In this document: piece by piece, positions 1 to 44,181 of the stretch
How the letters are laid out: each line of letters opens with the position of its first letter
How positions within the stretch are numbered: the first letter of the stretch is position 1
Assembly: GCA_023205875.1 (NCBI GenBank)
Contig: CP060756.1
Location: forward strand, 1,364,001 to 1,428,000
DNA length: 64,000 nucleotides
Direction: 5' to 3'
From: Chloropicon primus
Taxonomy: Eukaryota
Notes under the pieces: generated by a model
What the model saw: the letters and a program-made list of their open reading frames with translations, nothing else
Told to the model about the DNA's origin: nothing
Databases searched by the model: none
Made by a program: the position numbers and the translations under genes

Positions 1-310
1 GCATCCAACTCGAGGAAGAATCGGATTCCATGCTGTGCAGAGCTTCATACGATACCTCGAGAAGAAGACGTTGGTGAGGATCCATCCAACACGCCTCAGA
101 GCGAGATACGCCAAAACATGGTATATCGAAGAGCTCTATGCCGTCAAGGAAACCACCAAAACGGATTGGCACAATGGGCGCACCATCCTTGTAATCCTCA
201 TCAGCGTCCCAGCGCATGTGTGGAACCCTCCAAATACTGTCCCCAGCATTGGAAGTCTGGCAAAGATTGTGTTCAGGAGTGGGTAACCGTGCCGCAAGAC
301 TCAACATATG
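1..310 (-). other. PKS module 8: N-terminal part of KS, truncated by the window edge
   Basis: Same KS N-terminal sequence as at 8725-9035. Confidence 0.8.
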
Positions 311-3300: not shown

Positions 3301-6300
3301 AGGGTCCGTGCGGTGCGGTCAAAGCACTGGATCGCCCATCTTGGTTCACAGCAGTGCCACGTAGCATCACCGTATCTTGTTTGGAACCATCTTCAAGAGG
3401 ACCAAGAACGCAAGCGATGCAAGCTTCAGCACGCACGTAACCGTCTGCTGATGCATCCAAGGTCTTGCAACGCCCATCAGGCGCAAGCATGCCTGCTCTC
3501 TGGACAGAACCAAATGTGTCTCGCATGACCATCACTTCACAACCACACGCCAGTCCCTTCGAGACGTCGCCAAGAACAAGGCCCATGTAGGACATGTGTG
3601 CTGCGACAAGAGAGGATGAACAAGCCGTATCAACAGCTGCACAAGCTCCTTGCAAACCATATGTGAAGGACAGTCGCCCTGCAGAAACACTCAAAGAACC
3701 TGACGTAACCGCATGAGCCTCAGACTTATGGCCATAACCAGCATAGATATTGCTGTACTCCGCATGAGAGATTCCTAAAAACACATTGGTTTTGCTCCCA
3801 TAAACCTTTCCAACTAAACTCAGACATTCATACGATACCTCGAGAAGAAGACGTTGGTGAGGATCCATCCAACACGCCTCAGAGCGAGATACGCCAAAAC
3901 ATGGTATATCGAAGAGCTCTATGCCGTCAAGGAAACCACCAAAACGGATTGGCACAATGGGCGCACCATCCTTGTAATCCTCATCAGCGTCCCAGCGCAT
4001 GTGTGGAACCCTCCAAATACTGTCCCCAGCATTGGAAGTCTGGCAAAGATTGTGTTCAGGAGTGGGTAACCGTGCCGCAAGACTCAACATATGAACACTC
4101 ACAGATCCTTCAGAGACTGTCCGAATGCCTGTCGATATTGCAGCAGAAGCCAAAGGCACCTGCTTCGGACCAAGCAAGGTCTCTGCGTATTCAATGATAG
4201 CATGAACGCTTGGATAGTCAAAGATCAGCATCCCAGGCAAATCAATACCAAGGCTCTGCTCAAGAGATGAACGCAACTCCATCGCACCAAGGGAATCAAG
4301 ACCTGCAGCCATCAATGGATCGTCTGGGCTCACCTCATGACCCACGACAGCATGCACAGCTTCCTTGACCTTCTGCTGTAATACGTCCGCATCCAAAGTC
4401 ATGCCGGATGCAGCGCTGGCAGATGTGTTGGACATTCTTGTGGCATCGATAGAAGAACCGTGACCATGAGATGCAGTGTCATGCATATTTGAGAATAGTG
4501 GAGGAACATGTGTCATGCGAGAGAGGAATCTATCCCACATGAAGCGCTGAACAGCAACTTGGGCGTGAGATGACCACATCGCATTGTCCAAGCAACCACC
4601 ACCACCACAAACACGACCTGCAATACTCTGCAAGGCGAACAATCCTTCATACGGAGACAACATGTAAAGACCCATCTGCTCCATGCGCTTGGCATGCTTG
4701 ACTGCCATGCCACCAGATGCCCAAGGACCCCACTGGACACTCACAGCACTCACGCCTGCATTCTGCCACATGTGAGCTTGGGCATCCAATACAGCATTGG
4801 CTGCAGCGTAATTGGTTTGTCCAGCTGATCCAAGCAAAGCAGCAACAGAAGAGAAGAGAACTTGAGCACCCATGGCTTCCATTGCAAATGTCTTCGCCAG
4901 CTGATGCAAGCCCACAACCTTGGGAGCAAATACTTGCTTCACAGATTGTGCTGTCTGGTTGCTGAGCACAGAATCAGCAAGGACTCCGCCAGCATGCATC
5001 ACACCTTGTACGCCAAGACCTCCAAGCAAGTGACAATCTTCAGCACAGGACACATCGCAATGCAGTATTTGCACCTCCGCACCGCAACTGTGACCACACA
5101 AACCCTTGCTCATGGACTTGATGTGACCAGTGCGACCCAACATCAACACGCAATCGATTCCGCGTTGAGTGAGATGCTGTCCTGTCAGCAGTCCAAGAGC
5201 ACCAGTGCCTCCCGTCACAACCCAGTGAGAACTTGATGTGTCAAGGATAGGAGCAAAGGACTCATTGGAGACGATGACTTTACCAATGTGAGCAGCTCTT
5301 GACATTTGCCGCAAAGCTGAAGACACGTGATTCATTCCATGAACGGTTGATGCTAAAGGCCTCGCAGTGCCAAGAGCCAAAGCATGAGACAAATCGGTCA
5401 TGACCTTCCGCACATGTGAAGGTGGTAAGAAATCCAACGCCACCAAGTTGTACGTAAGATCTGGTCTCTCCATCTTCATGGATCTTGTACTCCAAATGTC
5501 TCGCTTGCCAAGCTCCACAAATCTACCTCCGGTGCGAACACAACTTAACGAAGAGGCAATCATTCCAGAGGAAGTCAGAGAATTGATGATCAGGTCAACA
5601 CCCGAGTGGAATGCTGCACTAAATGCAGTCGACCGAGTGCTGCAAACACTCTGTACTCCAAGCGACCTGACATAACCTCTTTTAGCAACATTGCCTGCCG
5701 TGCTCCAAACATTTGCACCCAAGGCATTGCTCACGTTAATTGCTGCGGTTCCAATACCGCCAGAACCTGCGTGAACCAAGATTGTATCACTGACACTAGC
5801 ACCACAGGCCTGCTTCAAAGCAAGCCATACTGTCATGTAAACAGATGGAGTTGAAGCAGCAAGCTCAAAAGATACACCCTTACTAAGGAGGGAGACTACA
5901 GAGAATGGAACATCCACTGTTGTTGCAAAGGAACCTGATGCCAGGGCAAGGACAGCATCACCGACGAGTAGCTCTGTACCGTCGTTGGTCGAAGTACAGC
6001 ATGAATGTACCACACCGGAGCAGTCTGCTCCTGGCGGTCCAGGATCGCCAGGGTATGCACCGAGCACATTCAACACATCACGGAAATTGATTCCAACGCT
6101 GTGAACGAGAATAGAAAGAAATCCTTCCTTCTGTACTGTATCTTCACGTGCGAACTCAACAACCATATTGCTCAAGGAACCCCTTGGGTGTGGTTTGATT
6201 TGATACCTTGCACGGGTCATTGGCAGTTCTGGAACATTGAGAAGTCTTGCGTCATAGTACGCGCCTCCTTTCAAGACATTCCCGCTGTGCTTGCTGGCCA

Positions 6301-9300
6301 TGTCTGCCTCAGTTTTAGCATCCCACGTACTGAAGTGACATGGAACAGATCCCTTCTGTGTCTCTGAGGCAGCACAAGTGTCTCTGACGGACAAGAAGAC
6401 TGATCCGCTGGCAACAACACTCTTCACGATACCCCAAAGAAGTGATGCTTGCAATTGAGAATTTCCAACAACATCGGCTCCGACTGACACTCCTCCCCGA
6501 GAAGAAAAGGACATACTCTGGGACCTGATTTGTGACATGACTTGAACAGCGCCAATAGCTTCTGTACACAATCTTGCCTCATGAAGGGTTCCCTTGGAGC
6601 AGTGCTCTTGGAATGCAAACTGATTGTGACATCCAAAAGTGCTTGACGCTGATAAACCGCTGGTTTGAACTTGCCATTGAAGTCTATACTGAACGGAGTC
6701 TGGCATAAATCGCACAGCCTTCTTTTGGTCAGACGCGTTGGCCTTCAAGCTCTTTGCAATCAGTCCATTTATGCAAAGATCGAAGTTGTGAGAGGTACCT
6801 GAGACCCTGTAGTGTGTTTCTTTCTGTGTGGCCGTGCTAGAAGCAGAATCATAGACTGACAAGGCATGGTAGCTATAGCCACGCATGCATCCGCTGCCAT
6901 GCAAAGCATGGAAGCCAGCGGGAACAAAAGTCGACGATTCTCCATCATTTTGACCAGCGGAGGATACTACGGAGCACATTCCTCTTGCTGCGCCAACCTG
7001 GAGTGAGGCATCGAGCACAGCGGGACATAACTTGAAACCCCTATCTTCAGTAGGGAGAACGTTTTCAACATTACCCACTGCAATGTCAAACTGGGGTTGA
7101 TGGACCTCATTGGATCCAAGCCAAACACTTGACAGCAATGCAAAAGAAGGACCATATTGGAGGCCATGAGCAGCAAAGAAGGGATAAAGATAAGCTCCGT
7201 TCACAAGGGTACGGCTCTTTGATCTGACTACTTCTCTTGAGAAGCCTGTCCTCTCAATGTCACCATTCACCATTTTGTCTTTCGCCTGTTGCATCTGCAC
7301 TTTTCCATGGACATGCAATCTCTTTTGTGATCTGCCTGTGTTCTCCGATGAGAGTGTTAGGCCACCTGTATCCAATTGCAACTCAGCAGTACAATACAAA
7401 CTATTGACCATGTTCTCACCAAGATCCTCCAGAGAAAGAGGCGAAGCAATCACAGAGTCGCACATAGAATATTCACATGCAAGGCCAGAATCTCTCAAAG
7501 CAGAGGCGATCGAACTGTAACCAAGTTCCATGAAGGCGGCGCCTGGCAACAACGCTTGTCCAGAGATGACATGATCCCACAGATAAGCCATTGCCGGATG
7601 ATACATCTTGCAAGTAAAAATGCATGAATTTGGAAGGACACGTGCTGGTGCGCAACTCACCATCAAATCAAAGTCAACAGTGTACCAACAACGCTCACGT
7701 TGCCACAGCATGACCAAACCTGGACGAGATACAGTATCAATATTTCCAACAGATCCACTGCAATGAGATAACAGTGCATGGGCATTGGTGCCCTGGAAAG
7801 CGAAGCCGCTCACACCTCCAACACTTGCATCTCCACATGCCAATGAGCTTGATTGACGACTCAGATCAACAGCAAGACTATTGTTCTTGTCAGAGCCACT
7901 ACCAAGCATACTCAGTATGTGATGATTCAGATGTCTCAAGTGACTGATGGCACTAGCTGATTTGTGCATCAGATTGCCTGCGAGCTGAACCATACCAGCC
8001 ATACCAGCTGCTGCTTCACTATGCCCCATATTGCTCTTCACTCCAGACATGTGGACAGGGAAGTCCCGTTTGGTGGCCTCGGAGAGTAACACAGCAGATG
8101 CCGCACCGACCTCAATGGGGTCACCAAGAGGAGTACCTGTACCGTGCATCTGCAAGACCTGTACATTCCAGGCATCAAGGTCTGCCGAGTGCAAGCTCAT
8201 ACGCATCACTTGCTGTTGAGAGGGTCCGTGCGGTGCGGTCAAAGCACTGGATCGCCCATCTTGGTTCACAGCAGTGCCACGTAGCATCACCGTATCTTGT
8301 TTGGAACCATCTTCAAGAGGACCAAGAACGCAAGCGATGCAAGCTTCAGCACGCACGTAACCGTCTGCTGATGCATCTAAGGTCTTGCAACGCCCATCAG
8401 GCGCAAGCATGCCTGCTCTCTGAATAGAACCAAATGTGTCTCTACTGATTTGAAGGTCAACACCGCACACAAGACCCTTCGAGAGTTGACCTAGAACAAG
8501 GCCCATGTAGGACATGTGTGCTGCGACAAGAGAGGATGAACAAGCCGTATCAACAGCTGCACAAGCTCCTTGCAAACCATATGTGAAGGACAGTCGCCCT
8601 GCAGAAACACTCAAAGAACCTGACGTAACCGCATGAACCTCAGACTTATGGCCATAACCAGCATAGATATTGCTGTATTCAACATGCTGAGTACCCACCA
8701 TCACACCCATCCTCTGTTTCTGATGCATCCAACTCGAGGAAGAATCGGATTCCATGCTGTGCAGAGCTTCATACGATACCTCGAGAAGAAGACGTTGGTG
8801 AGGATCCATCCAACACGCCTCAGAGCGAGATACGCCAAAACATGGTATATCGAAGAGCCCTATGCCGTCAAGGAAACCACCAAAACGGATTGGCACAATG
8901 GGCGCACCATCCTTGTAATCCTCATCAGCGTCCCAGCGCATGTGTGGAACCCTCCAAATACTGTCCCCAGCATTGGAAGTCTGGCAAAGATTGTGTTCAG
9001 GAGTGGGTAACCGTGCCGCAAGACTCAACATATGAACACTCACAGATCCTTCAGAGACTGTCCGAATGCCTGTCGATATTGCAGCAGAAGCCAAAGGCAC
9101 CTGCTTCGGACCAAGCAAGGTCTCTGCGTATTCAATGATAGCATGAACGCTTGGATAGTCAAAGATCAGCATCCCAGGCAAATCAATACCAAGGCTCTGC
9201 TCAAGAGATGAACGCAACTCCATCGCACCAAGGGAATCAAGACCTGCAGCCATCAATGGATCGTCTGGGCTCACCTCATGACCCACGACAGCATGCACAG

Positions 9301-12300
9301 CTTCCTTGACCTTCTGCTGTAATACGTCCGCATCCAAAGTCATGCCGGATGCAGCGCTGGCAGATGTGTTGGACATTCTTGTGGCATCGATAGAAGAACC
9401 GTGACCATGAGATGCAGTGTCATGCATATTTGAGAATAGTGGAGGAACATGTGTCATGCGAGAGAGGAATCTATCCCACATGAAGCGCTGAACAGCAACT
9501 TGGGCGTGAGATGACCACATCGCATTGTCCAAGCAACCACCACCACCACAAACACGACCTGCAATACTCTCCAAGGCGAACAATCCTTCATACGGAGACA
9601 ACATGTAAAGACCCATCTGCTCCATGCGCTTGGCATGCTTGACTGCCATGCCACCAGATGCCCAAGGACCCCACTGGACACTCACAGCACTCACGCCTGC
9701 ATTCTGCCACATGTGAGCTTGGGCATCCAATACAGCATTGGCTGCAGCGTAATTGGTTTGTCCAGCTGATCCAAGCAAAGCAGCAACAGAAGAGAAGAGA
9801 ACTTGAGCACCCATGGCTTCCATTGCAAATGTCTTCGCCAGCTGATGCAAGCCCACAACCTTGGGAGCAAATACTTGCTTCACAGATTGTGCTGTCTGGT
9901 TGCTGAGCACAGAATCAGCAAGGACTCCGCCAGCATGCATCACACCTTGTACGCCAAGACCTCCAAGCAAGTGACAATCTTCAGCACAGGACACATCGCA
10001 ATGCAGTATTTGCACCTCCGCACCGCAACTGTGACCACACAAACCCTTGCTCATGGACTTGATGTGACCAGTGCGACCCAACATCAACACGCAATCGATT
10101 CCGTGTTGAGTGAGATGCTGTCCTGTCAGCAGTCCAAGAGCACCAGTGCCTCCCGTCACAACCCATGATCCTGCCACGGAAGACAGTGACTGAGAAGAAT
10201 GAGGGAAACATGGAACCATAGCTGCAGTCTCCACCATGCTCTGATCCACATATACACACCAGCCTCCGCCATTGTGAATCTCACTTAGAGGCAAACAAGA
10301 CTCATCAACCTTATTGCTTGTGTCATGAGATCCAAAGTGCAGTGAAGTGGATTGTACACCATTCAGAGCACAAGCTCGTAGAATGCCGTATATCATAGCA
10401 TTTCCCTGGTCCCCGACAAAAGGTGCAGGAACACCACAAGAGGTGGATGTGGTTGATTTGGAAACCAACTTGAGGTCGCAAGAGCTCATTTGGTTGTATT
10501 TGTCCTGAAGGACAGCAATTGTACTCAGGGATAATGCCACAAGGGACGCAGGGTGATCGAGCAAGCACGATTTCTGCTCAACAAAAGAGTCAGCGTCTCC
10601 TCCGCTCCATACGTGGCATGAAGATGCACTCATGTCATCCAAGACTTGCGCAGAAGAGATCACAGGGCACACAGATTGCCATGACAACGTGTACTGCACT
10701 TGCTCGGAGAGGTCCGCGGAGCTTCTCATACGGCTCAGCGGCACCGACAAGTCTTTCCTATGTAGAGTACCATTCAACTCCACCGCACCGAATCTTGACA
10801 TCTCCGTACGACTGGACTTGCCACGGTTGGCCAAGCATAGCCAATCCCCGGCACTGGAATACGAAGATGTTCCCATCCTCATAGCATCTGCGCCACAAGC
10901 AAGTCCACTGAGATGACTCCATTCACCAAGTCCCAAACACATTGCGAGATGAACAGGGTTCACCACGTATCCGTCTTCTGAGGAAACCATCTCGTTGATG
11001 TTTGGCAACATGTATCCCAAATAGGTTGCGGAAGGACTGGCATTGCTGAGATCAGTATCAAAGACCCTCGTGTGCTTTTGCACATCGTCTTCACTGTGAT
11101 GATTTGTTGAGGGTGCCCACTGAGTTGTGCCTGCTAGACACGTTTTAGACTGAGAGGAACCTCCGCAGACTACACTAATCTCATTCTTCCTCTGCACTAG
11201 GACGTTCACAGTTTGCGACGTTGAATCATCCAGTACAATTGGTGCGGGCATGGTGAGATTGCGCATCACATATGAATCGGTCTTTTCATTCTTGCCGCCA
11301 GATCTTAGAACGTCAATCGTACCGGCACACATCTCAATCAGGGATCCCATACCTGCGATGGGTCTGCCGTTGAATAAGTGTTGCCAAATGAAAGCATGCT
11401 GTACTCTATTCAGCATACCCTCGAGGCTAATATCTCCACCCTGCGCAAAGGCAACACGTGACAAGAGTTTTGGGAGTTTGCACACATACCAACAACGCTC
11501 ACGTTGCCACAGCATGACCAAACCTGGACGAGATACAGTATCAATATTTCCAACAGATCCACTGCAATGAGATAACAGTGCATGGGCATTGGTGCCCTGG
11601 AAAGCGAAGCCGCTCACACCTCCAACACTTGCATCTCCACATGCCAATGAGCTTGATTGACGACTCAGATCAACAGCAAGACTATTGTTCTTGTCAGAGC
11701 CACTACCAAGCATACTCAGTATGTGATGATTCAGATGTCTCAAGTGACTGATGGCACTAGCTGATTTGTGCATCAGATTGCCTGCGAGCTGAACCATACC
11801 AGCCATACCAGCTGCTGCTTCACTATGCCCCATATTGCTCTTCACTCCAGACATGTGGACAGGGAAGTCCCGTTTGGTGGCCTCGGAGAGTAACACAGCA
11901 GATGCCGCACCGACCTCAATGGGGTCACCAAGAGGAGTACCTGTACCGTGCATCTGCAAGACCTGTACATTCCAGGCATCAAGGTCTGCCGAGTGCAAGC
12001 ACATACGCATCACTTGCTGTTGAGAGGGTCCGTGCGGTGCGGTCAAAGCACTGGATCGCCCATCTTGGTTCACAGCAGTGCCACGTAGCATCACCGTATC
12101 TTGTTTGGAACCATCTTCAAGAGGACCGAGAACGCAAGCGATGCAAGCTTCAGCACGCACGTAACCGTCTGCTGATGCATCCAAGGTCTTGCAACGCCCA
12201 TCAGGCGCAAGCATGCCTGCTCTCTGGACAGAACCAAATGTGTCTCGCATGACCATCACTTCACAACCACACGCCAGTCCCTTCGAGACGTCGCCAAGAA

Positions 12301-15300
12301 CAAGGCCCATGTAGGACATGTGTGCTGCGACAAGAGAGGATGAACAAGCCGTATCAACAGCTGCACAAGCTCCTTGCAAACCATATGTGAAGGACAGTCG
12401 CCCTGCAGAAACACTCAAAGAACCTGACGTAACCGCATGAGCCTCAGACTTATGGCCATAACCAGCATAGATATTGCTGTACTCCGCATGAGAGATTCCT
12501 AAAAACACATTGGTTTTGCTCCCATAAACCTTTCCAACTAAACTCAGACATTCATACGATACCTCGAGAAGAAGACGTTGGTGAGGATCCATCCAACACG
12601 CCTCAGAGCGAGATACGCCAAAACATGGTATATCGAAGAGCTCTATGCCGTCAAGGAAACCACCAAAACGGATTGGCACAATGGGCGCACCATCCTTGTA
12701 ATCCTCATCAGCGTCCCAGCGCATGTGTGGAACCCTCCAAATACTGTCCCCAGCATTGGAAGTCTGGCAAAGATTGTGTTCAGGAGTGGGTAACCGTGCC
12801 GCAAGACTCAACATATGAACACTCACAGATCCTTCAGAGACTGTCCGAATGCCTGTCGATATTGCAGCAGAAGCCAAAGGCACCTGCTTCGGACCAAGCA
12901 AGGTCTCTGCGTATTCAATGATAGCATGAACGCTTGGATAGTCAAAGATCAGCATCCCAGGCAAATCAATACCAAGGCTCTGCTCAAGAGATGAACGCAA
13001 CTCCATCGCACCAAGGGAATCAAGACCTGCAGCCATCAATGGATCGTCTGGGCTCACCTCATGACCCACGACAGCATGCACAGCTTCCTTGACCTTCTGC
13101 TGTAATACGTCCGCATCCAAAGTCATGCCGGATGCAGCGCTGGCAGATGTGTTGGACATTCTTGTGGCATCGATAGAAGAACCGTGACCATGAGATGCAG
13201 TGTCATGCATATTTGAGAATAGTGGAGGAACATGTGTCATGCGAGAGAGGAATCTATCCCACATGAAGCGCTGAACAGCAACTTGGGCGTGAGATGACCA
13301 CATCGCATTGTCCAAGCAACCACCACCACCACAAACACGACCTGCAATACTCTCCAAGGCGAACAATCCTTCATACGGAGACAACATGTAAAGACCCATC
13401 TGCTCCATGCGCTTGGCATGCTTGACTGCCATGCCACCAGATGCCCAAGGACCCCACTGGACACTCACAGCACTCACGCCTGCATTCTGCCACATGTGAG
13501 CTTGGGCATCCAATACAGCATTGGCTGCAGCGTAATTGGTTTGTCCAGCTGATCCAAGCAAAGCAGCAACAGAAGAGAAGAGAACTTGAGCACCCATGGC
13601 TTCCATTGCAAATGTCTTCGCCAGCTGATGCAAGCCCACAACCTTGGGAGCAAATACTTGCTTCACAGATTGTGCTGTCTGGTTGCTGAGCACAGAATCA
13701 GCAAGGACTCCGCCAGCATGCATCACACCTTGTACGCCAAGACCTCCAAGCAAGTGACAATCTTCAGCACAGGACACATCGCAATGCAGTATTTGCACCT
13801 CCGCACCGCAACTGTGACCACACAAACCCTTGCTCATGGACTTGATGTGACCAGTGCGACCCAACATCAACACGCAATCGATTCCGCGTTGAGTGAGATG
13901 CTGTCCTGTCAGCAGTCCAAGAGCACCAGTGCCTCCCGTCACAACCCAGTGAGAACTTGATGTGTCAAGGATAGGAGCAAAGGACTCATTGGAGACGATG
14001 ACTTTACCAATGTGAGCAGCTCTTGACATTTGCCGCAAAGCTGAAGACACGTGATTCATTCCATGAACGGTTGATGCTAAAGGCCTCGCAGTGCCAAGAG
14101 CCAAAGCATGAGACAAATCGGTCATGACCTTCCGCACATGTGAAGGTGGTAAGAAATCCAACGCCACCAAGTTGTACGTAAGATCTGGTCTCTCCATCTT
14201 CATGGATCTTGTACTCCAAATGTCTCGCTTGCCAAGCTCCACAAATCTACCTCCGGTGCGAACACAACTTAACGAAGAGGCAATCATTCCAGAGGAAGTC
14301 AGAGAATTGATGATCAGGTCAACACCCGAGTGGAATGCTGCACTAAATGCAGTCGACCGAGTGCTGCAAACACTCTGTACTCCAAGCGACCTGACATAAC
14401 CTCTTTTAGCAACATTGCCTGCCGTGCTCCAAACATTTGCACCCAAGGCATTGCTCACGTTAATTGCTGCGGTTCCAATACCGCCAGAACCTGCGTGAAC
14501 CAAGATTGTATCACTGACACTAGCACCACAGGCCTGCTTCAAAGCAAGCCATACTGTCATGTAAACAGATGGAGTTGAAGCAGCAAGCTCAAAAGATACA
14601 CCCTTACTAAGGAGGGAGACTACAGAGAATGGAACATCCACTGTTGTTGCAAAGGAACCTGATGCCAGGGCAAGGACAGCATCACCGACGAGTAGCTCTG
14701 TACCGTCGTTGGTCGAAGTACAGCATGAATGTACCACACCGGAGCAGTCTGCTCCTGGCGGTCCAGGATCGCCAGGGTATGCACCGAGCACATTCAACAC
14801 ATCACGGAAATTGATTCCAACGCTGTGAACGAGAATAGAAAGAAATCCTTCCTTCTGTACTGTATCTTCACGTGCGAACTCAACAACCATATTGCTCAAG
14901 GAACCCCTTGGGTGTGGTTTGATTTGATACCTTGCACGGGTCATTGGCAGTTCTGGAACATTGAGAAGTCTTGCGTCATAGTACGCGCCTCCTTTCAAGA
15001 CATTCCCGCTGTGCTTGCTGGCCATGTCTGCCTCAGTTTTAGCATCCCACGTACTGAAGTGACATGGAACAGATCCCTTCTGTGTCTCTGAGGCAGCACA
15101 AGTGTCTCTGACGGACAAGAAGACTGATCCGCTGGCAACAACACTCTTCACGATACCCCAAAGAAGTGATGCTTGCAATTGAGAATTTCCAACAACATCG
15201 GCTCCGACTGACACTCCTCCCCGAGAAGAAAAGGACATACTCTGGGACCTGATTTGTGACATGACTTGAACAGCGCCAATAGCTTCTGTACACAATCTTG

Positions 15301-18300
15301 CCTCATGAAGGGTTCCCTTGGAGCAGTGCTCTTGGAATGCAAACTGATTGTGACATCCAAAAGTGCTTGACGCTGATAAACCGCTGGTTTGAACTTGCCA
15401 TTGAAGTCTATACTGAACGGAGTCTGGCATAAATCGCACAGCCTTCTTTTGGTCAGACGCGTTGGCCTTCAAGCTCTTTGCAATCAGTCCATTTATGCAA
15501 AGATCGAAGTTGTGAGAGGTACCTGAGACCCTGTAGTGTGTTTCTTTCTGTGTGGCCGTGCTAGAAGCAGAATCATAGACTGACAAGGCATGGTAGCTAT
15601 AGTCACGCATGCATCCGCTGCCATGCAAAGCATGGAAGCCAGCGGGAACAAAAGTCGACGATTCTCCATCATTTTGACCAGCGGAGGATACTACGGAGCA
15701 CATTCCTCTTGCTGCGCCAACCTGGAGTGAGGCATCGAGCACAGCGGGACATAACTTGAAACCCCTATCTTCAGTAGGGAGAACGTTTTCAACATTACCC
15801 ACTGCAATGTCAAACTGGGGTTGATGGACCTCATTGGATCCAAGCCAAACACTTGACAGCAATGCAAAAGAAGGACCATATTGGAGGCCATGAGCAGCAA
15901 AGAAGGGATAAAGATAAGCTCCGTTCACAAGGGTACGGCTCTTTGATCTGACTACTTCTCTTGAGAAGCCTGTCCTCTCAATGTCACCATTCACCCTTTT
16001 GTCTTTCGCCTGTTGCATCTGCACTTTTCCATGGACATGCAATCTCTTTTGTGATCTGCCTGTGTTCTCCGATGAGAGTGTTAGGCCACCTGTATCCAAT
16101 TGCAACTCAGCAGTACAATACAAACTATTGACCATGTTCTCACCAAGATCCTCCAGAGAAAGAGGCGAAGCAATCACAGAGTCGCACATAGAATATTCAC
16201 ATGCAAGGCCAGAATCTCTCAAAGCAGAGGCGATCGAACTGTAACCAAGTTCCATGAAGGCGGCGCCTGGCAACAACGCTTGTCCAGAGATGACATGATC
16301 CCACAGATAAGCCATTGCCGGATGATACATCTTGCAAGTAAAAATGCATGAATTTGGAAGGACACGTGCTGGTGCGCAACTCACCATCAAATCAAAGTCA
16401 ACAGTGTACCAACAACGCTCACGTTGCCACAGCATGACCAAACCTGGACGAGATACAGTATCAATATTTCCAACAGATCCACTGCAATGAGATAACAGTG
16501 CATGGGCATTGGTGCCCTGGAAAGCGAAGCCGCTCACACCTCCAACACTTGCATCTCCACATGCCAATGAGCTTGATTGACGACTCAGATCAACAGCAAG
16601 ACTATTGTTCTTGTCAGAGCCACTACCAAGCATACTCAGTATGTGATGATTCAGATGTCTCAAGTGACTGATGGCACTAGCTGATTTGTGCATCAGATTG
16701 CCTGCGAGCTGAACCATACCAGCCATACCAGCTGCTGCTTCACTATGCCCCATATTGCTCTTCACTCCAGACATGTGGACAGGGAAGTCCCGTTTGGTGG
16801 CCTCGGAGAGTAACACAGCAGATGCTGCACCGACCTCAATGGGGTCACCAAGAGGAGTACCTGTACCGTGCATCTGCAAGACCTGTACATTCCAGGCATC
16901 AAGGTCTGCCGAGTGCAAGCTCATACGCATCACTTGCTGTTGAGAGGGTCCGTGCGGTGCGGTCAAAGCACTGGATCGCCCATCTTGGTTCACAGCAGTG
17001 CCACGTAGCATCACCGTATCTTGTTTGGAACCATCTTCAAGAGGACCGAGAACGCAAGCGATGCAAGCTTCAGCACGCACGTAACCGTCTGCTGATGCAT
17101 CCAAGGTCTTGCAACGCCCATCAGGCGCAAGCATGCCTGCTCTCTGGATAGAATGAAACGTCGACCTCATGATAAGGATTTCATTACCGCACACAAGACC
17201 CTTCGAGAGTTGACCTAGAACAAGGCCCATGTAGGACATGTGTGCTGCGACAAGAGAGGATGAACAAGCCGTATCAACAGCTGCACAAGCTCCTTGCAAA
17301 CCATATGTGAAGGACAGTCGCCCTGCAGAAACACATAAAGAACCTGACGTAACCGCATTGCCGTCGTTCTTATGACCCAAACTTCCATAAACATAGGAAT
17401 ATTCAAGATGCTGAGTACCCACCATCACACCCATCCTCTGTTTCTGATGCATCCAACTCGAGGAAGAATCGGATTCCATGCTGTGCAGAGCTTCATACGA
17501 TACCTCGAGAAGAAGACGTTGGTGAGGATCCATCCAACACGCCTCAGAGCGAGATACGCCAAAACATGGTATATCGAAGAGCCCTATGCCGTCAAGGAAA
17601 CCACCAAAACGGATTGGCACAATGGGCGCACCATCCTTGTAATCCTCATCAGCGTCCCAGCGCATGTGTGGAACCCTCCAAATACTGTCCCCAGCATTGG
17701 AAGTCTGGCAAAGATTGTGTTCAGGAGTGGGTAACCGTGCCGCAAGACTCAACATATGAACACTCACAGATCCTTCAGAGACTGTCCGAATGCCTGTCGA
17801 TATTGCAGCAGAAGCCAAAGGCACCTGCTTCGGACCAAGCAAGGTCTCTGCGTATTCAATGATAGCATGAACGCTTGGATAGTCAAAGATCAGCATCCCA
17901 GGCAAATCAATACCAAGGCTCTGCTCAAGAGATGAACGCAATTCCATCGCACCAAGGGAATCAAGACCTGCAGCCATCAATGGTTCATCGGGATTCGTAT
18001 CATGACCCACGACAGCATGCACAGCTTCCTTGACCTTCTGCTGTAATACGTCCGCATCCATGCCAGAGGTTCCAGAGCTTTGTCTTGGCTCAATAAAACT
18101 CTCTGCGTATTCAATGATAGCATGAACGCTTGGATAGTCAAAGATCAGCATCCCAGGCAAATCAATACCAAGGCTCTGCTCAAGAGATGAACGCAACTCC
18201 ATCGCACCAAGGGAATCAAGACCTGCAGCCATCAATGGATCGTCTGGGCTCACCTCATGACCCACGACAGCATGCACAGCATCCTTGACCTTCTGCTGTA

Positions 18301-21300
18301 ATACGTCCGCATCCAAAGTCATGCCGGATGCAGCGCTGGCAGATGTGTTGGACATTCTTGTGGCATCGATAGAAGAACCGTGACCATGAGATGCAGTGTC
18401 ATGCATATTTGAGAATAGTGGAGGAACATGTGTCATGCGAGAGAGGAATCTATCCCACATGAAGCGCTGAACAGCAACTTGGGCGTGAGATGACCACATC
18501 GCATTGTCCAAGCAACCACCACCACCACAAACACGACCTGCAATACTCTGCAAGGCGAACAATCCTTCATACGGAGACAACATGTAAAGACCCATCTGCT
18601 CCATGCGCTTGGCATGCTTGACTGCCATGCCACCAGATGCCCAAGGACCCCACTGGACACTCACAGCACTCACGCCTGCATTCTGCCACATGTGAGCTTG
18701 GGCATCCAATACAGCATTGGCTGCAGCGTAATTGGTTTGTCCAGCTGATCCAAGCAAAGCAGCAACAGAAGAGAAGAGAACTTGAGCACCCATGGCTTCC
18801 ATTGCAAATGTCTTCGCCAGCTGATGCAAGCCCACAACCTTGGGAGCAAATACTTGCTTCACAGATTGTGCTGTCTGGTTGCTGAGCACAGAATCAGCAA
18901 GGACTCCGCCAGCATGCATCACACCTTGTACGCCAAGACCTCCAAGCAAGTGACAATCTTCAGCACAGGACACATCGCAATGCAGTATTTGCACCTCCGC
19001 ACCGCAACTGTGACCACACAAACCCTTGCTCATGGACTTGATGTGACCAGTGCGACCCAACATCAACACGCAATCGATTCCGTGTTGAGTGAGATGCTGT
19101 CCTGTCAGCAGTCCAAGAGCACCAGTGCCTCCCGTCACAACCCATGATCCTGCCACGGAAGACAGTGACTGAGAAGAATGAGGGAAACATGGAACCATAG
19201 CTGCAGTCTCCACCATGCTCTGATCCACATATACACACCAGCCTCCGCCATTGTGAATCTCACTTAGAGGCAAACAAGACTCATCAACCTTATTGCTTGT
19301 GTCATGAGATCCAAAGTGCAGTGAAGTGGATTGTACACCATTCAGAGCACAAGCTCGTAGAATGCCGTATATCATAGCATTTCCCTGGTCCCCGACAAAA
19401 GGTGCAGGAACACCACAAGAGGTGGATGTGGTCGATTTGGAAACCAACTTGAGGTCGCAAGAGCTCATTTGGTTGTATTTGTCCTGAAGGACAGCAATTG
19501 TACTCAGGGATAATGCCACAAGGGACGCAGGGTGATCGAGCAAGCACGATTTCTGCTCAACAAAAGAGTCAGCGTCTCCTCCGCTCCATACGTGGCATGA
19601 AGATGCACTCATGTCATCCAAGACTTGCGCAGAAGAGATCACAGGGCACACAGATTGCCATGACAACGTGTACTGCACTTGCTCGGAGAGGTCCGCGGAG
19701 CTTCTCATACGGCTCAGCGGCACCGACAAGTCTTTCCTATGTAGAGTACCATTCAACTCCACCGCACCGAATCTTGACATCTCCGTACGACTGGACTTGC
19801 CACGGTTGGCCAAGCATAGCCAATCCCCGGCACTGGAATACGAAGATGTTCCCATCCTCATAGCATCTGCGCCACAAGCAAGTCCACTGAGATGACTCCA
19901 TTCACCAAGTCCCAAACACATTGCGAGATGAACAGGGTTCACCACGTATCCGTCTTCTGAGGAAACCATCTCGTTGATGTTTGGCAACATGTATCCCAAA
20001 TAGGTTGCGGAAGGACTGGCATTGCTGAGATCAGTATCAAAGACCCTCGTGTGCTTTTGCACATCGTCTTCACTGTGATGATTTGTTGAGGGTGCCCACT
20101 GAGTTGTGCCTGCTAGACACGTTTTAGACTGAGAGGAACCTCCGCAGACTACACTAATCTCATTCTTCCTCTGCACTAGGACGTTCACAGTTTGCGACGT
20201 TGAATCATCCAGTACAATTGGTGCGGGCATGGTGAGATTGCGCATCACATATGAATCGGTCTTTTCATTCTTGCCGCCAGATCTTAGAACGTCAATCGTA
20301 CCGGCACACATCTCAATCAGGGATCCCATACCTGCGATGGGTCTGCCGTTGAATAAGTGTTGCCAAATGAAAGCATGCTGTACTCTATTCAGCATACCCT
20401 CGAGGCTAATATCTCCACCCTGCGCAAAGGCAACACGTGACAAGAGTTTTGGGAGTTTGCACACATACCAACAACGCTCACGTTGCCACAGCATGACCAA
20501 ACCTGGACGAGATACAGTATCAATATTTCCAACAGATCCACTGCAATGGGATAACAGTGCATGGGCATTGGTGCCCTGGAACGCAAATGCCCCAACTTCA
20601 CCGATGCACACATCTCCACATGCCAATGAGCTTGATTGACGACTCAGATCAACAGCGCCACCAACCATGCTCAGTATGTGATGATTCAGATGTCTCAAGT
20701 GACTGATGGCACTAGCTGATTTGTGCATCAGATTGCCTGCGAGCTGAACCATACCAGCCATACCAGCAGCACATTCAGTATGTCCAATGTTGCTCTTCAC
20801 TCCAGACATGTGGACAGGGAAGTCCCGTTTGGTGGCCTCGGAGAGTAACACAGCAGATGCTGCACCGACCTCAATGGGGTCACCAAGAGGAGTACCTGTA
20901 CCGTGCATCTGCAAGACCTGTACATTCCAGGCATCAAGGTCTGCCGAGTGCAAGCTCATACGCATCACTTGCTGTTGAGAGGGTCCGTGCGGTGCGGTCA
21001 AAGCACTGGATCGCCCATCTTGGTTCACAGCAGTGCCACGTAGCATCACCGTATCTTGTTTGGAACCATCTTCAAGAGGACCAAGAACGCAAGCGATGCA
21101 AGCTTCAGCACGCACGTAACCGTCTGCTGATGCATCCAAGGTCTTGCAACGCCCATCAGGCGCAAGCATGCCTGCTCTTTGGATGCATTCAAACGTCTTG
21201 CGTCTTACGTGGATGTCAATTCCACACACAAGACCAGAAGATAGTTCTCCTGCACGCAAACCCATAAACGACACGTGCATAGCAACTAAAGATGCTGAGC

Positions 21301-24300
21301 AAGCCGTATCAACAGCTGCACAAGCTCCTTGCAAACCATATGTGAAGGACAGTCGCCCTGCAGAAACGCTAAGAGATGCTGAAGTAACTGCATACGATTC
21401 CATCTTCAAGCCCTGATATGACATTTCATTGGAAAACTCAATGTGTTGAATGCCAACCATCACACCCATCCTCTGTTTCTGATGCATCCAACTCGAGGAA
21501 GAATCGGATTCCATGCTGTGCAGAGCTTCATACGATACCTCGAGAAGAAGACGTTGGTGAGGATCCATCCAACACGCCTCAGAGCGAGATACGCCAAAAC
21601 ATGGTATATCGAAGAGCTCTATGCCGTCAAGGAAACCACCAAAACGGATTGGCACAATGGGCGCACCATCCTTGTAATCCTCATCAGCGTCCCAGCGCAT
21701 GTGTGGAACCCTCCAAATACTGTCCCCAGCATTGGAAGTCTGGCAAAGATTGTGTTCAGGAGTGGGTAACCGTGCCGCAAGACTCAACATATGAACACTC
21801 ACAGATCCTTCAGAGACTGTCCGAATGCCTGTCGATATTGCAGCAGAAGCCAAAGGCACCTGCTTCGGACCAAGCAAGGTCTCTGCGTATTCAATGATAG
21901 CATGAACGCTTGGATAGTCAAAGATCAGCATCCCAGGCAAATCAATACCAAGGCTCTGCTCAAGAGATGAACGCAATTCCATCGCACCAAGGGAATCAAG
22001 ACCTGCAGCCATCAATGGTTCATCGGGATTCGTATCATGACCCACGACAGCATGCACAGCTTCCTTGACCTTCTGCTGTAATACGTCCGCATCCATGCCA
22101 GAGGTTCCAGAGCTTTGTCTTGGCTCAATAAAACTCTCTGCGTATTCAATGATAGCATGAACGCTTGGATAGTCAAAGATCAGCATCCCAGGCAAATCAA
22201 TACCAAGGCTCTGCTCAAGAGATGAACGCAACTCCATCGCACCAAGGGAATCAAGACCTGCAGCCATCAATGGATCGTCTGGGCTCACCTCATGACCCAC
22301 GACAGCATGCACAGCATCCTTGACCTTCTGCTGTAATACGTCCGCATCCAAAGTCATGCCGGATGCAGCGCTGGCAGATGTGTTGGACATTCTTGTGGCA
22401 TCGATAGAAGAACCGTGACCATGAGATGCAGTGTCATGCATATTTGAGAATAGTGGAGGAACATGTGTCATGCGAGAGAGGAATCTATCCCACATGAAGC
22501 GCTGAACAGCAACTTGGGCGTGAGATGACCACATCGCATTGTCCAAGCAACCACCACCACCACAAACACGACCTGCAATACTCTCCAAGGCGAACAATCC
22601 TTCATACGGAGACAACATGTAAAGACCCAACTGCTCCATGCGCTTGGCATGCTTGACTGCCATGCCACCAGATGCCCAAGGACCCCACTGGACACTCACA
22701 GCACTCACGCCTGCATTCTGCCACATGTGAGCTTGGGCATCCAATACAGCATTGGCTGCAGCGTAATTGGTTTGTCCAGCTGATCCAAGCAAAGCAGCAA
22801 CAGAAGAGAAGAGAACTTGAGCACCCATGGCTTCCATTGCAAATGTCTTCGCCAGCTGATGCAAGCCCACAACCTTGGGAGCAAATACTTGCTTCACAGA
22901 TTGTGCTGTCTGGTTGCTGAGCACAGAATCAGCAAGGACTCCGCCAGCATGCATCACACCTTGTACGCCAAGACCTCCAAGCAAGTGACAATCTTCAGCA
23001 CAGGACACATCGCAATGCAGTATTTGCACCTCCGCACCGCAACTGTGACCACACAAACCCTTGCTCATGGACTTGATGTGACCAGTGCGACCCAACATCA
23101 ACACGCAATCGATTCCATGTTGAGTGAGATGCTGTCCTGTCAGCAGTCCAAGAGCACCAGTGCCTCCCGTCACAACCCATGATCCTGCCACGGAAGACAG
23201 TGACTGAGAAGAATGAGGGAAACATGGAACCATAGCTGCAGTCTCCACCATGCTCTGATCCACATATACACACCAGCCTCCGCCATTGTGAATCTCACTT
23301 AGAGGCAAACAAGACTCATCAACCTTATTGCTTGTGTCATGAGATCCAAAGTGCAGTGAGAGTGGATTGTACACCATTCAGAGCACAAGCTCGTAGAATG
23401 CCGTATATCATAGCATTTCCCTGGTCCCCGACAAAAGGTGCAGGAACACCACAAGAGGTGGATGTGGTCGATTTGGAAACCAACTTGAGGTCGCAAGAGC
23501 TCATTTGGTTGTATTTGTCCTGAAGGACAGCAATTGTACTCAGGGATAATGCCACAAGGGACGCAGGGTGATCGAGCAAGCACGATTTCTGCTCAACAAA
23601 AGAGTCAGCGTCTCCTCCGCTCCATACGTGGCATGAAGATGCACTCATGTCATCCAAGACTTGCGCAGAAGAGATCACAGGGCACACAGATTGCCATGAC
23701 AACGTGTACTGCACTTGCTCGGAGAGGTCCGCGGAGCTTCTCATACGGCTCAGCGGCACCGACAAGTCTTTCCTATGTAGAGTACCATTCAACTCCACCG
23801 CACCGAATCTTGACATCTCCGTACGACTGGACTTGCCACGGTTGGCCAAGCATAGCCAATCCCCGGCACTGGAATACGAAGATGTTCCCATCCTCATAGC
23901 ATCTGCGCCACAAGCAAGTCCACTGAGATGACTCCATTCACCAAGTCCCAAACACATTGCGAGATGAACAGGGTTCACCACGTATCCGTCTTCTGAGGAA
24001 ACCATCTCGTTGATGTTTGGCAACATGTATCCCAAATAGGTTGCGGAAGGACTGGCATTGCTGAGATCAGTATCAAAGACCCTCGTGTGCTTTTGCACAT
24101 CGTCTTCACTGTGATGATTTGTTGAGGGTGCCCACTGAGTTGTGCCTGCTAGACACGTTTTAGACTGAGAGGAACCTCCGCAGACTACACTAATCTCATT
24201 CTTCCTCTGCACTAGGACGTTCACAGTTTGCGACGTTGAATCATCCAGTACAATTGGTGCGGGCATGGTGAGATTGCGCATCACATATGAATCGGTCTTT

Positions 24301-27300
24301 TCATTCTTGCCGCCAGATCTTAGAACGTCAATCGTACCGGCACACATCTCAATCAGGGATCCCATACCTGCGATGGGTCTGCCGTTGAATAAGTGTTGCC
24401 AAATGAAAGCATGCTGTACTCTATTCAGCATACCCTCGAGGCTAATATCTCCACCCTGCGCAAAGGCAACACGTGACAAGAGTTTTGGGAGTTTGCACAC
24501 ATACCAACAACGCTCACGTTGCCACAGCATGACCAAACCTGGACGAGATACAGTATCAATATTTCCAACAGATCCACTGCAATGGGATAACAGTGCATGG
24601 GCATTGGTGCCCTGGAACGCAAATGCCCCAACTTCGCCGATGCACACATCTCCACATGCCAATGAGCTTGATTGACGACTCAGATCAACAGCGCCACCAA
24701 CCATGCTCAGTATGTGATGATTCAGATGTCTCAAGTGACTGATGGCACTAGCTGATTTGTGCATCAGATTGCCTGCGAGCTGAACCATACCAGCCATACC
24801 AGCAGCACATTCAGTATGTCCAATGTTGCTCTTCACTCCAGACATGTGGACAGGGAAGTCCCGTTTGGTGGCCTCGGAGAGTAACACAGCAGATGCCGCA
24901 CCGACCTCAATGGGGTCACCAAGAGGAGTACCTGTACCGTGCATCTGCAAGACCTGTACATTCCAGGCATCAAGGTCTGCCGAGTGCAAGCTCATACGCA
25001 TCACTTGCTGTTGAGAGGGTCCGTGCGGTGCGGTCAAAGCACTGGATCGCCCATCTTGGTTCACAGCAGTGCCACGTAGCATCACCGTATCTTGTTTGGA
25101 ACCATCTTCAAGAGGACCAAGAACGCAAGCGATGCAAGCTTCAGCACGCACGTAACCGTCTGCTGATGCATCCAAGGTCTTGCAACGCCCATCAGGCGCA
25201 AGCATGCCTGCTCTTTGTATGATAGAAAATATGTTTTGACACACGTGCAAGTCAATTCCACAAACAAGACCAGAAGATAGCTCTCCTGCACGCAAACCCA
25301 TAAACGACAAGTGCATCGCAACTAAAGATGCTGAGCAAGCCGTATCAACAGCTGCACAAGCTCCTTGCAAACCATATGTGAAGGACAGTCGCCCTGCAGA
25401 AACACTCAAAGACCCCGCCGTGACTGAATACGTTTCCATTTTCAAGGAATGCAATCCCATTAAATCCCGGTATTCGAGATGCTGAGTACCCACCATCACA
25501 CCCATCCTCTGTTTCTGATGCATCCAACTCGAGGAAGAATCGGATTCCATGCTGTGCAGAGCTTCATACGATACCTCGAGAAGAAGACGTTGGTGAGGAT
25601 CCATCCAACACGCCTCAGAGCGAGATACGCCAAAACATGGTATATCGAAGAGCTCTATGCCGTCAAGGAAACCACCAAAACGGATTGGCACAATGGGCGC
25701 ACCATCCTTGTAATCCTCATCAGCGTCCCAGCGCATGTGTGGAACCCTCCAAACACTGTCCCCAGCATTGGAAGTCTGGCAAAGATTGTGTTCAGGAGTG
25801 GGTAACCGTGCCGCAAGACTCAACATATGAACACTCACAGATCCTTCAGAGACTGTCCGAATGCCTGTCGATATTGCAGCAGAAGCCAAAGGCACCTGCT
25901 TCGGACCAAGCAAGGTCTCTGCGTATTCAATGATAGCATGAACGCTTGGATAGTCAAAGATCAGCATCCCAGGCAAATCAATACCAAGGCTCTGCTCAAG
26001 AGATGAACGCAATTCCATCGCACCAAGGGAATCAAGACCTGCAGCCATCAATGGATCGTCTGGGCTCACCTCATGACCCACGACAGCATGCACAGCATCC
26101 TTGACCTTCTGCTGTAATACGTCCGCATCCAAAGTCATGCCGGATGCAGCGCTGGCAGATGTGTTGGACATTCTTGTGGCATCGATAGAAGAACCGTGAC
26201 CATGAGATGCAGTGTCATGCATATTTGAGAATAGTGGAGGAACATGTGTCATGCGAGAGAGGAATCTATCCCACATGAAGCGCTGAACAGCAACTTGGGC
26301 GTGAGATGACCACATCGCATTGTCCAAGCAACCACCACCACCACAAACACGACCTGCAATACTCTCCAAGGCGAACAATCCTTCATACGGAGACAACATG
26401 TAAAGACCCAACTGCTCCATGCGCTTGGCATGCTTGACTGCCATGCCACCAGATGCCCAAGGACCCCACTGGACACTCACAGCACTCACGCCTGCATTCT
26501 GCCACATGTGAGCTTGGGCATCCAATACAGCATTGGCTGCAGCGTAATTGGTTTGTCCAGCTGATCCAAGCAAAGCAGCAACAGAAGAGAAGAGAACTTG
26601 AGCACCCATGGCTTCCATTGCAAATGTCTTCGCCAGCTGATGCAAGCCCACAACCTTGGGAGCAAATACTTGCTTCACAGATTGTGCTGTCTGGTTGCTG
26701 AGCACAGAATCAGCAAGGACTCCGCCAGCATGCATCACACCTTGTACGCCAAGACCTCCAAGCAAGTGACAATCTTCAGCAAAAGACACGTTTGTTGATA
26801 TCTGGATGATATTTTCATATTTTCTGATCTTTGTAATCCTTTTGGTTCTTCCCAAGAGATACGTGAAGGCTTTGCATTTTTTTTGTAGCAGGTCTTTGAT
26901 GATATTTCCTAGTGCGCCTGTCCCACCGGTGATCATTGTTGTGCCCTTCATATGTTGGTTGCTGAATGTTGATATTTGTACTGGGCACAATCTAGGTGTG
27001 TACGATATGCTTGCTTTCAGAAGCCTCGCATATTTGTCTTGAACTATTTGTCGCTCATGAGTAAACGATGAATGCCTTGTTCCGTACTCATTGTGAATGT
27101 CATACATGGTGATCATAGCTACTTTTCCAATGGTATTTTCATACACTCTGCACAGTGCTGTTAAAACGGAAGCCATGACCCCTTGCAACCCATCGCTTGA
27201 CGCTGGTCCTAAGACTGGCGGTGCGGAGGATGTGGATGTGAATGTCGATGCGATAGAGTCCTTCATTTGCATTCGCTGCAATAAACTTATGCTTGATAGT

Positions 27301-43355: not shown

Positions 43356-44165
43356 ATCTCGCTCTGAGGCGTGTTGGATGGATCCTCACCAACGTCTTCT
43401 TCTCGAGGTATCGTATGAAGCTCTGCACAGCATGGAATCCGATTCTTCCTCGAGTTGGATGCATCAGAAACAGAGGATGGGTGTGATGGTGGGCATGTAC
43501 ACTCACTCAGCATGTTGAATACAGCAATATCTATGCTGGTTATGGCCATAAGTCTGAGGCTCATGCGGTTACGTCAGGTTCTTTGGGTGTTTCTGCAGGG
43601 CGACTGTCCTTCACATATGGTTTGCAAGGAGCTTGTGCAGCTGTTGATACGGCTTGTTCATCCTCTCTTGTCGCAGCACACATGTCCTACATGGGCCTTG
43701 TTCTTGGCGACGTCTCGAAGGGACTATATACACAATATGCACCGTGGCGTTCTCGGTCCTCTTGAAGATGGTTCCAAACAAGATACGGTGATGCTACGTG
43801 GCACTGCTGTGAACCAAGATGGGCGATCCAGTGCTTTGACCGCACCGCACGGACCCTCTCAACAGCAAGTGATGCGTATGAGCTTGCACTCGGCAGACCT
43901 TGATGCCTGGAGTGTACAGGTCTTGCAGATGCACGGTACAGGTACTCCTCTTGGTGACCCCATTGAGGTCGGTGCAGCATCTGCTGTGTTACTCTCCGAG
44001 GCCACCAAACGGGACTTCCCTGTCCACATGTCTGGAGTGAAGAGCAATATGGGGCATAGTGAAGCAGCAGCTGGTATGGCTGGTATGGTTCAGCTCGCAG
44101 GCAATCTGATGCATAAATCAGCTAGTGCCATCAGTCACTTGAGACATCTGAATCATCACATACTG
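43356..44165 (+). pseudogene. Inverted, detached fragment of a PKS KS domain
   Basis: Near-identical to the reverse complement of the KS of modules 4-7; about 10-bp frameshifting insertion near 43494-43504; about 140 bp (including AGMLAPDGRCK) replaced by about 21 bp of filler at 43726-43746. Confidence 0.93.
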
Positions 44166-44181
44166 TCAGTATGTGATGATT
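44151..44181. repeat. Perfect 15-bp inverted repeat (fold-back) with 1-nt spacer
   Basis: AATCATCACATACTG-T-CAGTATGTGATGATT. Confidence 0.95.

Follow-up and report, generated by a model that had tools for sequence, protein, structure and literature searches.

In the bacterial rapamycin family of polyketide synthases (PKSs), ketosynthase (KS) domains group by gene cluster, KS mutations lie mostly where the substrate binds and at the dimer interface, and KS conversions were proposed to be less neutral; no such branching was seen for the trans-acyltransferase (trans-AT) pederin and psymberin clusters (Medema et al. 2014, PMC4256081). In the mycolactone PKS, gene conversion has homogenised the modules to an extreme degree, and they cluster by strain (Pidot et al. 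2008, PMC2569948). Here, the giant AT-less type I PKS of the marine green picoalga Chloropicon primus is analysed. Its 5' part lies on the minus strand of the window, the window being the whole stretch of 64,000 nucleotides (GenBank assembly GCA_023205875.1, contig CP060756.1, positions 1,364,001 to 1,428,000). The gene resembles the rapamycin family in that its KS domains group by cluster and, by alignment, vary at the substrate site and dimer interface, but differs in its eukaryotic algal host, the lack of AT domains, flanks homogenised to 99.4–99.9% and variable patches that can be matched by position across species. Unlike the mycolactone PKS, where 9 of 419 KS residues vary without correlation with the substrate, the alga retains deep, old patch variants. 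The locus is a real and unusually clean eukaryotic, AT-less case of a published principle, and as such a test system, not a new mechanism.

Pairs of KS domains from modules M2 to M7 (Table 1) differ at 1–6 of 948 flank bases and at 23–62 of the 111 bases that make up two patches, of 24 (patch 1) and 13 residues (patch 2); between M5 and M7 the patches do not differ. The boundaries were set after the variation had been seen, and the contrast in base counts is thus descriptive. The clustering of the differences was not reached by any of 5000 codon shuffles in each of four comparisons. The clearest pair is M4 and M6, with 438 of 456 KS residues identical, 17 of the 18 differences inside the two patches, and 3 differing bases in the 3.5 kb outside the KS.

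Collapsed or mis-polished repeats could in principle produce such a mosaic. In keeping with this, the frameshift at 23360 of the window is probably false, and in a second assembly there are fewer units and the M3 position begins as M6-type, ahead of a break in the frame. The patches of M2, M4, M5 and M6, four of the five variants, are nevertheless found again in that second assembly (proteins P0247 and P0384), patch 2 of M2 and of M3 lies on separate contigs of sequencing run X1 at similar depth (173 and 193), and related variants exist in other species. An assembly artefact is therefore very improbable. Patch 2 of M3 lies on a contig without differences in runs X1 and X3 (both from one sample). 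Patch 1 of M3 has the window sequence as its sole source; the gap in the X1 and X3 contigs at this point is uninformative, because X1 likewise has no contig over patch 1 of M2, although the second assembly contains it.

An earlier note on this DNA had quoted the patch sequences, a GHTEC/GHSEA split and the identity of M5 and M7, all of which are present as written on the minus strand. It also described the KS domains as near-identical except for short blocks, with hypervariable patches confined to substrate-pocket regions. The first part stands, with clustering beyond chance; confinement of the variation to the two patches holds for M4/M6 and M2/M3 (20 of 23 differences inside the patches for the latter) but fails for M5/M6 (11 of 37) and M3/M4 (22 of 52). 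Of 86 variable amino-acid columns among M2–M7, gap columns counted, only 31 fall in the patches (19 in patch 1, 12 in patch 2). The remainder comprises 21 in columns 95–119 (M5/M7 only), 10 in 170–196, 3 in 340–347, 16 in 380–417 and 5 elsewhere. Blocks 170–196, 340–347 and 380–417 set the early modules (M2, M3) apart from the late ones, and block 340–347 encloses the second catalytic His. With 55 variable columns outside the patches, and with the patches forming linked blocks whose silent sites are near saturation, the idea of a natural minimal map of KS specificity at residue level was not borne out.

Few stretches of the KS family vary as much as patch 1 (column identity 0.19–0.24). Both patches might be variable loops that, after recent duplication and conversion, had become too diverged to convert, and that are tolerated and not needed. 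Among the 225 columns that vary across 717 comparison KSs, however, 31 lie inside the patches, and M4 differs from M6 at 16 of these but at none of the 194 outside; across all six KSs from M2 to M7, 27 of the 31 vary inside and 33 of the 194 outside. That equally variable columns elsewhere have been homogenised supports the view that the patches would be more than merely variable loops. Enrichment as such is not peculiar to this gene. When the most similar KS pair is taken from each of 21 other proteins, the patches hold 252 of 1131 differences, or 22%, compared with the 11% expected from family variability. Among 2273 pairs from 350 other multi-KS proteins, a sample of search hits and not a census, eight reach 95% identity outside the patches, with 0–2 differences inside, and the nearest comparable case has 9 of 28 differences inside. 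Judged from these alignments, the enrichment of KS differences in the patches is general, but its sharpness is not.

Silent differences amount to 0.27–0.82 in patch 1 and 0.41–0.91 in patch 2, against 0–0.07 in the conserved blocks; replacement differences are 0.09–0.41 and 0.31–0.55, respectively. As the silent sites of the patches are near saturation, the patches represent old variants that were kept and not new ones that were selected. Positive selection in the patches was considered and rejected, since replacement differences do not lie above silent ones, the sole and marginal excess being M2 versus M5/M7 in patch 2 (0.53 versus 0.50). Both observations are compatible with a neutral barrier to conversion, as are the free recombination of patch 1 and patch 2 types in relatives and in a detached KS copy (Table 1), and the near-complete homogenisation that mycolactone KSs tolerate (PMC2569948). 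On the other side, islands of 22 codons (19 silent sites) and 32 codons without any difference lie between saturated blocks. Homogenisation thus acts at a scale of less than 100 bp (66–96 bp), which a barrier between diverged stretches does not readily accommodate. The repeat carries mosaic tracts with differing histories, seen in these identical islands, in conflicting partitions and in the recombinant detached copy. The latter is 95–98% identical to the modules, and it changes from M6-type to M5-type within its patch 1; its junctions are found as loose ends in contigs of runs X1, X4 and X6, and recombination among the variants has therefore occurred.

The comparison with Chloropicon roscoffensis, whose protein P0121 is the nearest named orthologue, separates flanks from patches. 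Flank residues are identical at 314–316 of 316 positions within the window and at 284–285 of 316 against P0121 M2, and the P0121 flank matches its own relative P0002 at 323 of 325. The window's M2, in turn, matches the M2 of C. roscoffensis at 14 of 24 residues in patch 1, 11 of 13 in patch 2 and 8 of 8 at GHTEC, compared with 7–11 of 24 and 2–6 of 13 in the two patches of its own paralogues. Trees of 11 rows (M7 and the partial P0122 excluded) agree: the flank tree groups by species (support 100/99), and the patch tree joins both M2 domains (95/95, with long branches flagged). Since flanks follow species and patches follow position, recent duplication alone is insufficient. The preservation of 11 of 13 residues in M2 patch 2, alongside 10% flank divergence, likewise speaks against patches that are merely tolerated, and we consider the neutral explanation improbable. 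Paralogous modules are closer to each other than orthologous modules of the sister species, and other family-variable columns are homogenised; the proposal of concerted evolution of the modules is thus supported. Grouping of whole KS domains by incoming substrate, the bacterial trans-AT pattern, was not found, as most of the domain sorts by species and only the patches sort by position. Metagenome relatives share 11–12 of 13 residues with the M5-type patch 2 and 10 of 13 with the M6-type patch 2. In P0368, the short segment (95–119) of M5 type is found again, with Ser at position 2 (numbered below). A scan of JGI metagenomes gave 24 pattern matches and no relatives, and a search of 50%-identity representatives gave none above 43% identity among the 150 matches listed and no further Chloropicon modules.

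The patches had been assigned to the substrate pocket, and this agrees with their alignment to published gatekeeping elements. Placement in tunnel and interface draws on alignment, a monomer model and published work. The predicted M6 KS monomer (pLDDT 85.9) has the standard KS fold, with Foldseek TM values of 0.83–0.85 to CurL and bacillaene KS2. By alignment, patch 1 starts at gatekeeping positions 1–4 (columns 120–123), where column 121 corresponds to Ala154 of EryKS3. These four positions are located on a dimer-interface loop in bacterial KSs (Ray et al. 2024, PMC11321453). The likeness to the TNGQ and VMYH motifs of that work extends to position 2, which varies with the predicted β-chemistry of the incoming chain; unlike the bacterial motifs, the algal ones read (T/I)QH(L/I/V) and ISHA. 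Among cis-AT comparison KSs, columns 120–123 read TNGQ in 29 of 86 cases after modules with a ketoreductase (KR) only and VMYH or VMYN in 10 of 21 after dehydratase (DH) modules. In the alignment, patch 2 falls on the Met-x-x-Pro...Phe helix of DEBS KSs, and a helix is predicted at 203–211; on this basis, patch 2 is assigned to the active-site cap helix, placed at columns 200–213 with Cys199 of DEBS M5 as reference. Elsewhere, the cap helix has been defined as Met229–Gly242 of DEBS M5, and its exchange alters the substrate range in CorA (PMC13691573).

Modules M2 and M3 have the order DH0-KR-ACP-ACP (ACP, acyl carrier protein), M4 and M6 DH-ER-KR-ACP (ER, enoylreductase), and M5/M7 DH0-KR-ACP. 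The Asp motif is missing from DH0, as is the His motif in C. roscoffensis, whereas the DH of M4/M6 has both. Judged from these motifs, DH0-KR modules would leave a β-hydroxyl and DH-ER-KR modules a methylene, so that each of the five KS variants would be presented with a different chain. The predicted inputs are a short β-hydroxy chain for M2, β- and δ-hydroxyls for M3, β-, δ- and ζ-hydroxyls for M4, β-methylene with δ-hydroxyl for M5/M7, and β-hydroxyl with δ-methylene for M6. Gln occupies position 2 in M2, M3, M4 and M6, all with predicted β-hydroxy input; with predicted saturated input, the residue is Ser in M5/M7 and KS1 and Gly in the terminal KS. This rule fits all eight window KSs, the terminal KS, P0121 M2 and P0002, though few of these are independent events, and it fails for P0123. 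After ER modules, position 2 is Ser, Gly, Cys or Ala in 10 of 10 AT-less KSs in a crude motif classification. M3, M4 and M6 differ although their upstream module type is the same, which would fit a reading of δ position and chain length; KS reading beyond the β-carbon is known (PMC11294587). Position 2 within the window is in line with the suggestion that the patches track the upstream module, but patch 2 and the GHTEC/GHSEA block do not simply follow it, nor does P0123.

We favour, with a probability of about 70%, the explanation that the modules are kept alike by short-tract conversion, and that the residues with which each KS accepts its chain are shielded from it by selection. Conversion among the modules would be frequent, and selection would purge those events that overwrite what a module needs for its own incoming chain; both steps are likely. 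Gln at position 2 would act like the Asn of bacterial TNGQ, and the rest of patch 1 together with patch 2 would read δ position and chain length. Demonstrated are the sequence pattern, the split between species and position, and the alignment of the patches to the gatekeeping loop and cap helix. It is doubtful whether conversion and selection have produced a set of five isogenic KSs in which two independently exchangeable cassettes of 24 and 13 residues carry the whole β/δ/chain-length code, with an alga-specific Gln/Ser switch at position 2 and gatekeeping in an AT-less assembly line that grafting would re-programme.

Several observations weigh against selection for chain acceptance. The named orthologous modules compared across species are limited to M2. 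The identity of M5 and M7 had been read as two KSs following ER modules and sharing one variant; because an 8.7-kb two-module tandem duplication (99.3% identical) accounts for it, this is one event and not two, and the further P0246 copies derive from the same unit. Where the modules alternate, an effect of the upstream module type cannot be told from one of the downstream type. P0123, a metagenome contig, has a Gln-type KS right after an ER module, although its join spans a 1.4-kb shared repeat and may be a mis-join. P0002, P0126 and P0127 join a Gln-type patch 1 to an M5-type patch 2. In AT-less synthases, by the same crude classification, a small residue occupies position 2 after KR-only modules in 47 of 59 cases and Gln in none (at most 1 of 86 in cis-AT comparison KSs). 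Homogenised mycolactone KSs, finally, accept many substrates without correlation (PMC2569948).

The patches could alternatively be selected for protein contacts, that is, for dimer pairing in register or for docking with ACP or with DH/ER neighbours. The dimer-interface position of the gatekeeping loop (PMC11321453), the interface variation of the rapamycin family (PMC4256081) and known inter-module KS-ER recognition (PMC9899208) would be in line with this, as would blocks 95–119 (M5/M7-specific) and 380–417, which include low-confidence surface segments in the M6 model. However, M5, M7 and a further P0246 copy are identical, so that register could not be fully encoded, the ACPs upstream of all variants are near-identical, and position 2 follows the upstream chemistry and not the downstream domain, Gln being found before both DH0 and DH-ER. 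Selection for contacts in place of substrate is accordingly an unlikely account.

According to PMC11294587, it is chiefly KS gatekeeping, including that beyond the β-carbon, that stands in the way of re-engineered polyketide assembly lines. Pairs of the M4/M6 type, in which two cassettes hold 17 of the 18 differences, offer a ready swap experiment without background noise. If selection against overwriting conversions is correct, near-identical algal PKS modules, so far ascribed to duplication, would be maintained by ongoing gene conversion. The giant AT-less modular trans-AT PKSs of Ostreococcus and Micromonas are alike in this respect, with KS and ACP 98–100% alike, but Shelest et al. (2015, PMC4661987) explain the modules by duplication; the term 'gene conversion' occurs 0 times in that text, and neither Chloropicon nor variable patches were found in the part of it consulted. 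Literature searches on Chloropicon PKSs, conversion in microalgal modules and KS concerted evolution, with subscription journals largely uncovered, returned no description of this pattern in algae. The principle is already published for bacterial rapamycin-family synthases, and the codon-sharp, eukaryotic, AT-less case was found neither in print nor among the 2273 pairs.

The synthase is laid out on the minus strand in two abutting giant frames, 32285–23337 and 23377–2 (Table 1). A single frame carries repeated KS-(DH/ER/KR)-ACP modules whose KSs have their Cys and His motifs intact, which identifies it as a modular type I PKS. A Pfam scan of three segments gave AMP-binding, KS, DH, ER, KR and ACP domains and no AT family. 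At the 90% level, ORF A clusters with a named C. primus protein. The order is ligase, ACP, ACP and KS1 through KR-ACP, followed by M2 and M3, M4, and then M5/M7 alternating with M6. The two frames are split by one extra base at 23360, which is missing in three aligned sister modules, in contigs of X1, X4 and X6, and in P0247 of the second assembly; it is therefore likely an assembly error, and a real gene break at this point was rejected. The modules downstream of the window are known from proteins P0246 and P0384 only; the window and P0246 together contain more alternating units than P0384 does. Both proteins close with a divergent terminal KS, to which an ACP and a condensation-like HxxxDG domain are joined. 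As product, an acyl-primed 1,3,5-triol is predicted that continues with hydroxyls at every fourth carbon and would be released by the condensation-like domain; such a triol-plus-skipped-polyol from an abundant oceanic picoalga would be undescribed. In X1, contig depth is 173 and 193 at single patches, 822 at DH0, 1482 at KR and 1851 at the KS core. This gives a hint of some nine or ten homogenised modules, depth not being equal to copy number.

Table 1 Features of the PKS locus in window coordinates
Feature	Coordinates	Strand	Details
KS M2	24501..25844	-	patch 1 25416-25487, patch 2 25218-25256; then DH0-KR-ACP-ACP
KS M3	20465..21808	-	patch 1 21380-21451, patch 2 21182-21220; then DH0-KR-ACP-ACP
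KS M4	16406..17773	-	patch 1 17345-17416, patch 2 17147-17185; then DH-ER-KR-ACP
KS M5	11486..12832	-	patch 1 12425-12496, patch 2 12227-12265, own shorter segment 12497-12550; then DH0-KR-ACP
KS M6	7682..9049	-	patch 1 8621-8692, patch 2 8423-8461; then DH-ER-KR-ACP
KS M7, 1 residue off M5	2762..4108	-	patch 1 3701-3772, patch 2 3503-3541; then DH0-KR-ACP
PKS 5' part, ORF A, 2982 aa	23337..32285	-	AMP-binding ligase, 2 ACP, KS1, degenerate DH-like region, KR, ACP, KS M2, DH0
PKS continuation, ORF B, 7792 aa, open at window end	2..23377	-	modules M2 (KR) to M8 (start); no AT domain
Tandem two-module repeat, 8.7 kb	1..18060	-	1-9336 vs 8725-18060, 99.3% identical
Detached frame-broken KS fragment, 11 kb from gene	43356..44173	+	M6-type/M5-type patch 1 mosaic; patch 2 deleted

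GRINS (Nivina et al. 2021, PMC8256042) are likewise long PKS repeats of more than 80% identity whose coding strand is positively skewed for G and T. With the threshold applied there (repeat >500 bp, identity >80%, mean absolute skew >0.15 for both GC and TA), the algal gene differs in that only the KR-ACP repeat reaches the skew values (GC 0.16–0.17, TA 0.17–0.18) and the KS repeats do not (0.10–0.12 and 0.15); a single-copy helicase gene also has 0.16 and 0.18. A positive T skew on the coding strand was noted in the PKS repeats, and third-position G+C is 0.43–0.52 in the PKS modules (window 1–32285), compared with 0.83–0.88 in four neighbouring genes. The C. primus genome paper lists 12 PKS gene models with low G+C at these loci and, in its Supplementary Data 3, six 'fragmented PKS' models; a module analysis of the PKS was not found in the available part of that paper.

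The tandem ACPs of M2 and M3 lie at 21880–22350 and 17845–18315 and are 95% identical, and later modules have a single ACP. In P0246, residues 4570–5134 hold the ACP and the condensation-like HxxxDG domain, with a hydrophobic insert, in place of a thioesterase. A second C. primus PKS (P0248, P0004, P0125) has KS-DH-like-KR-ACP modules that are 99% identical, with 1–6 differences between modules, two of them in the patches in six of eight pairs. These differences recur at cap-helix columns 204 and 209, and position 2 is Glu. Eukaryotic genes neighbour the PKS in the window (cofilin-like, tubulin-tyrosine ligase, sialyltransferase). A 698-aa ORF on the plus strand (39721–41817), some 1.5 kb away from the detached KS copy, matches a resolvase N-terminal domain (E 1.6e-10) and is possibly a mobile-element recombinase.

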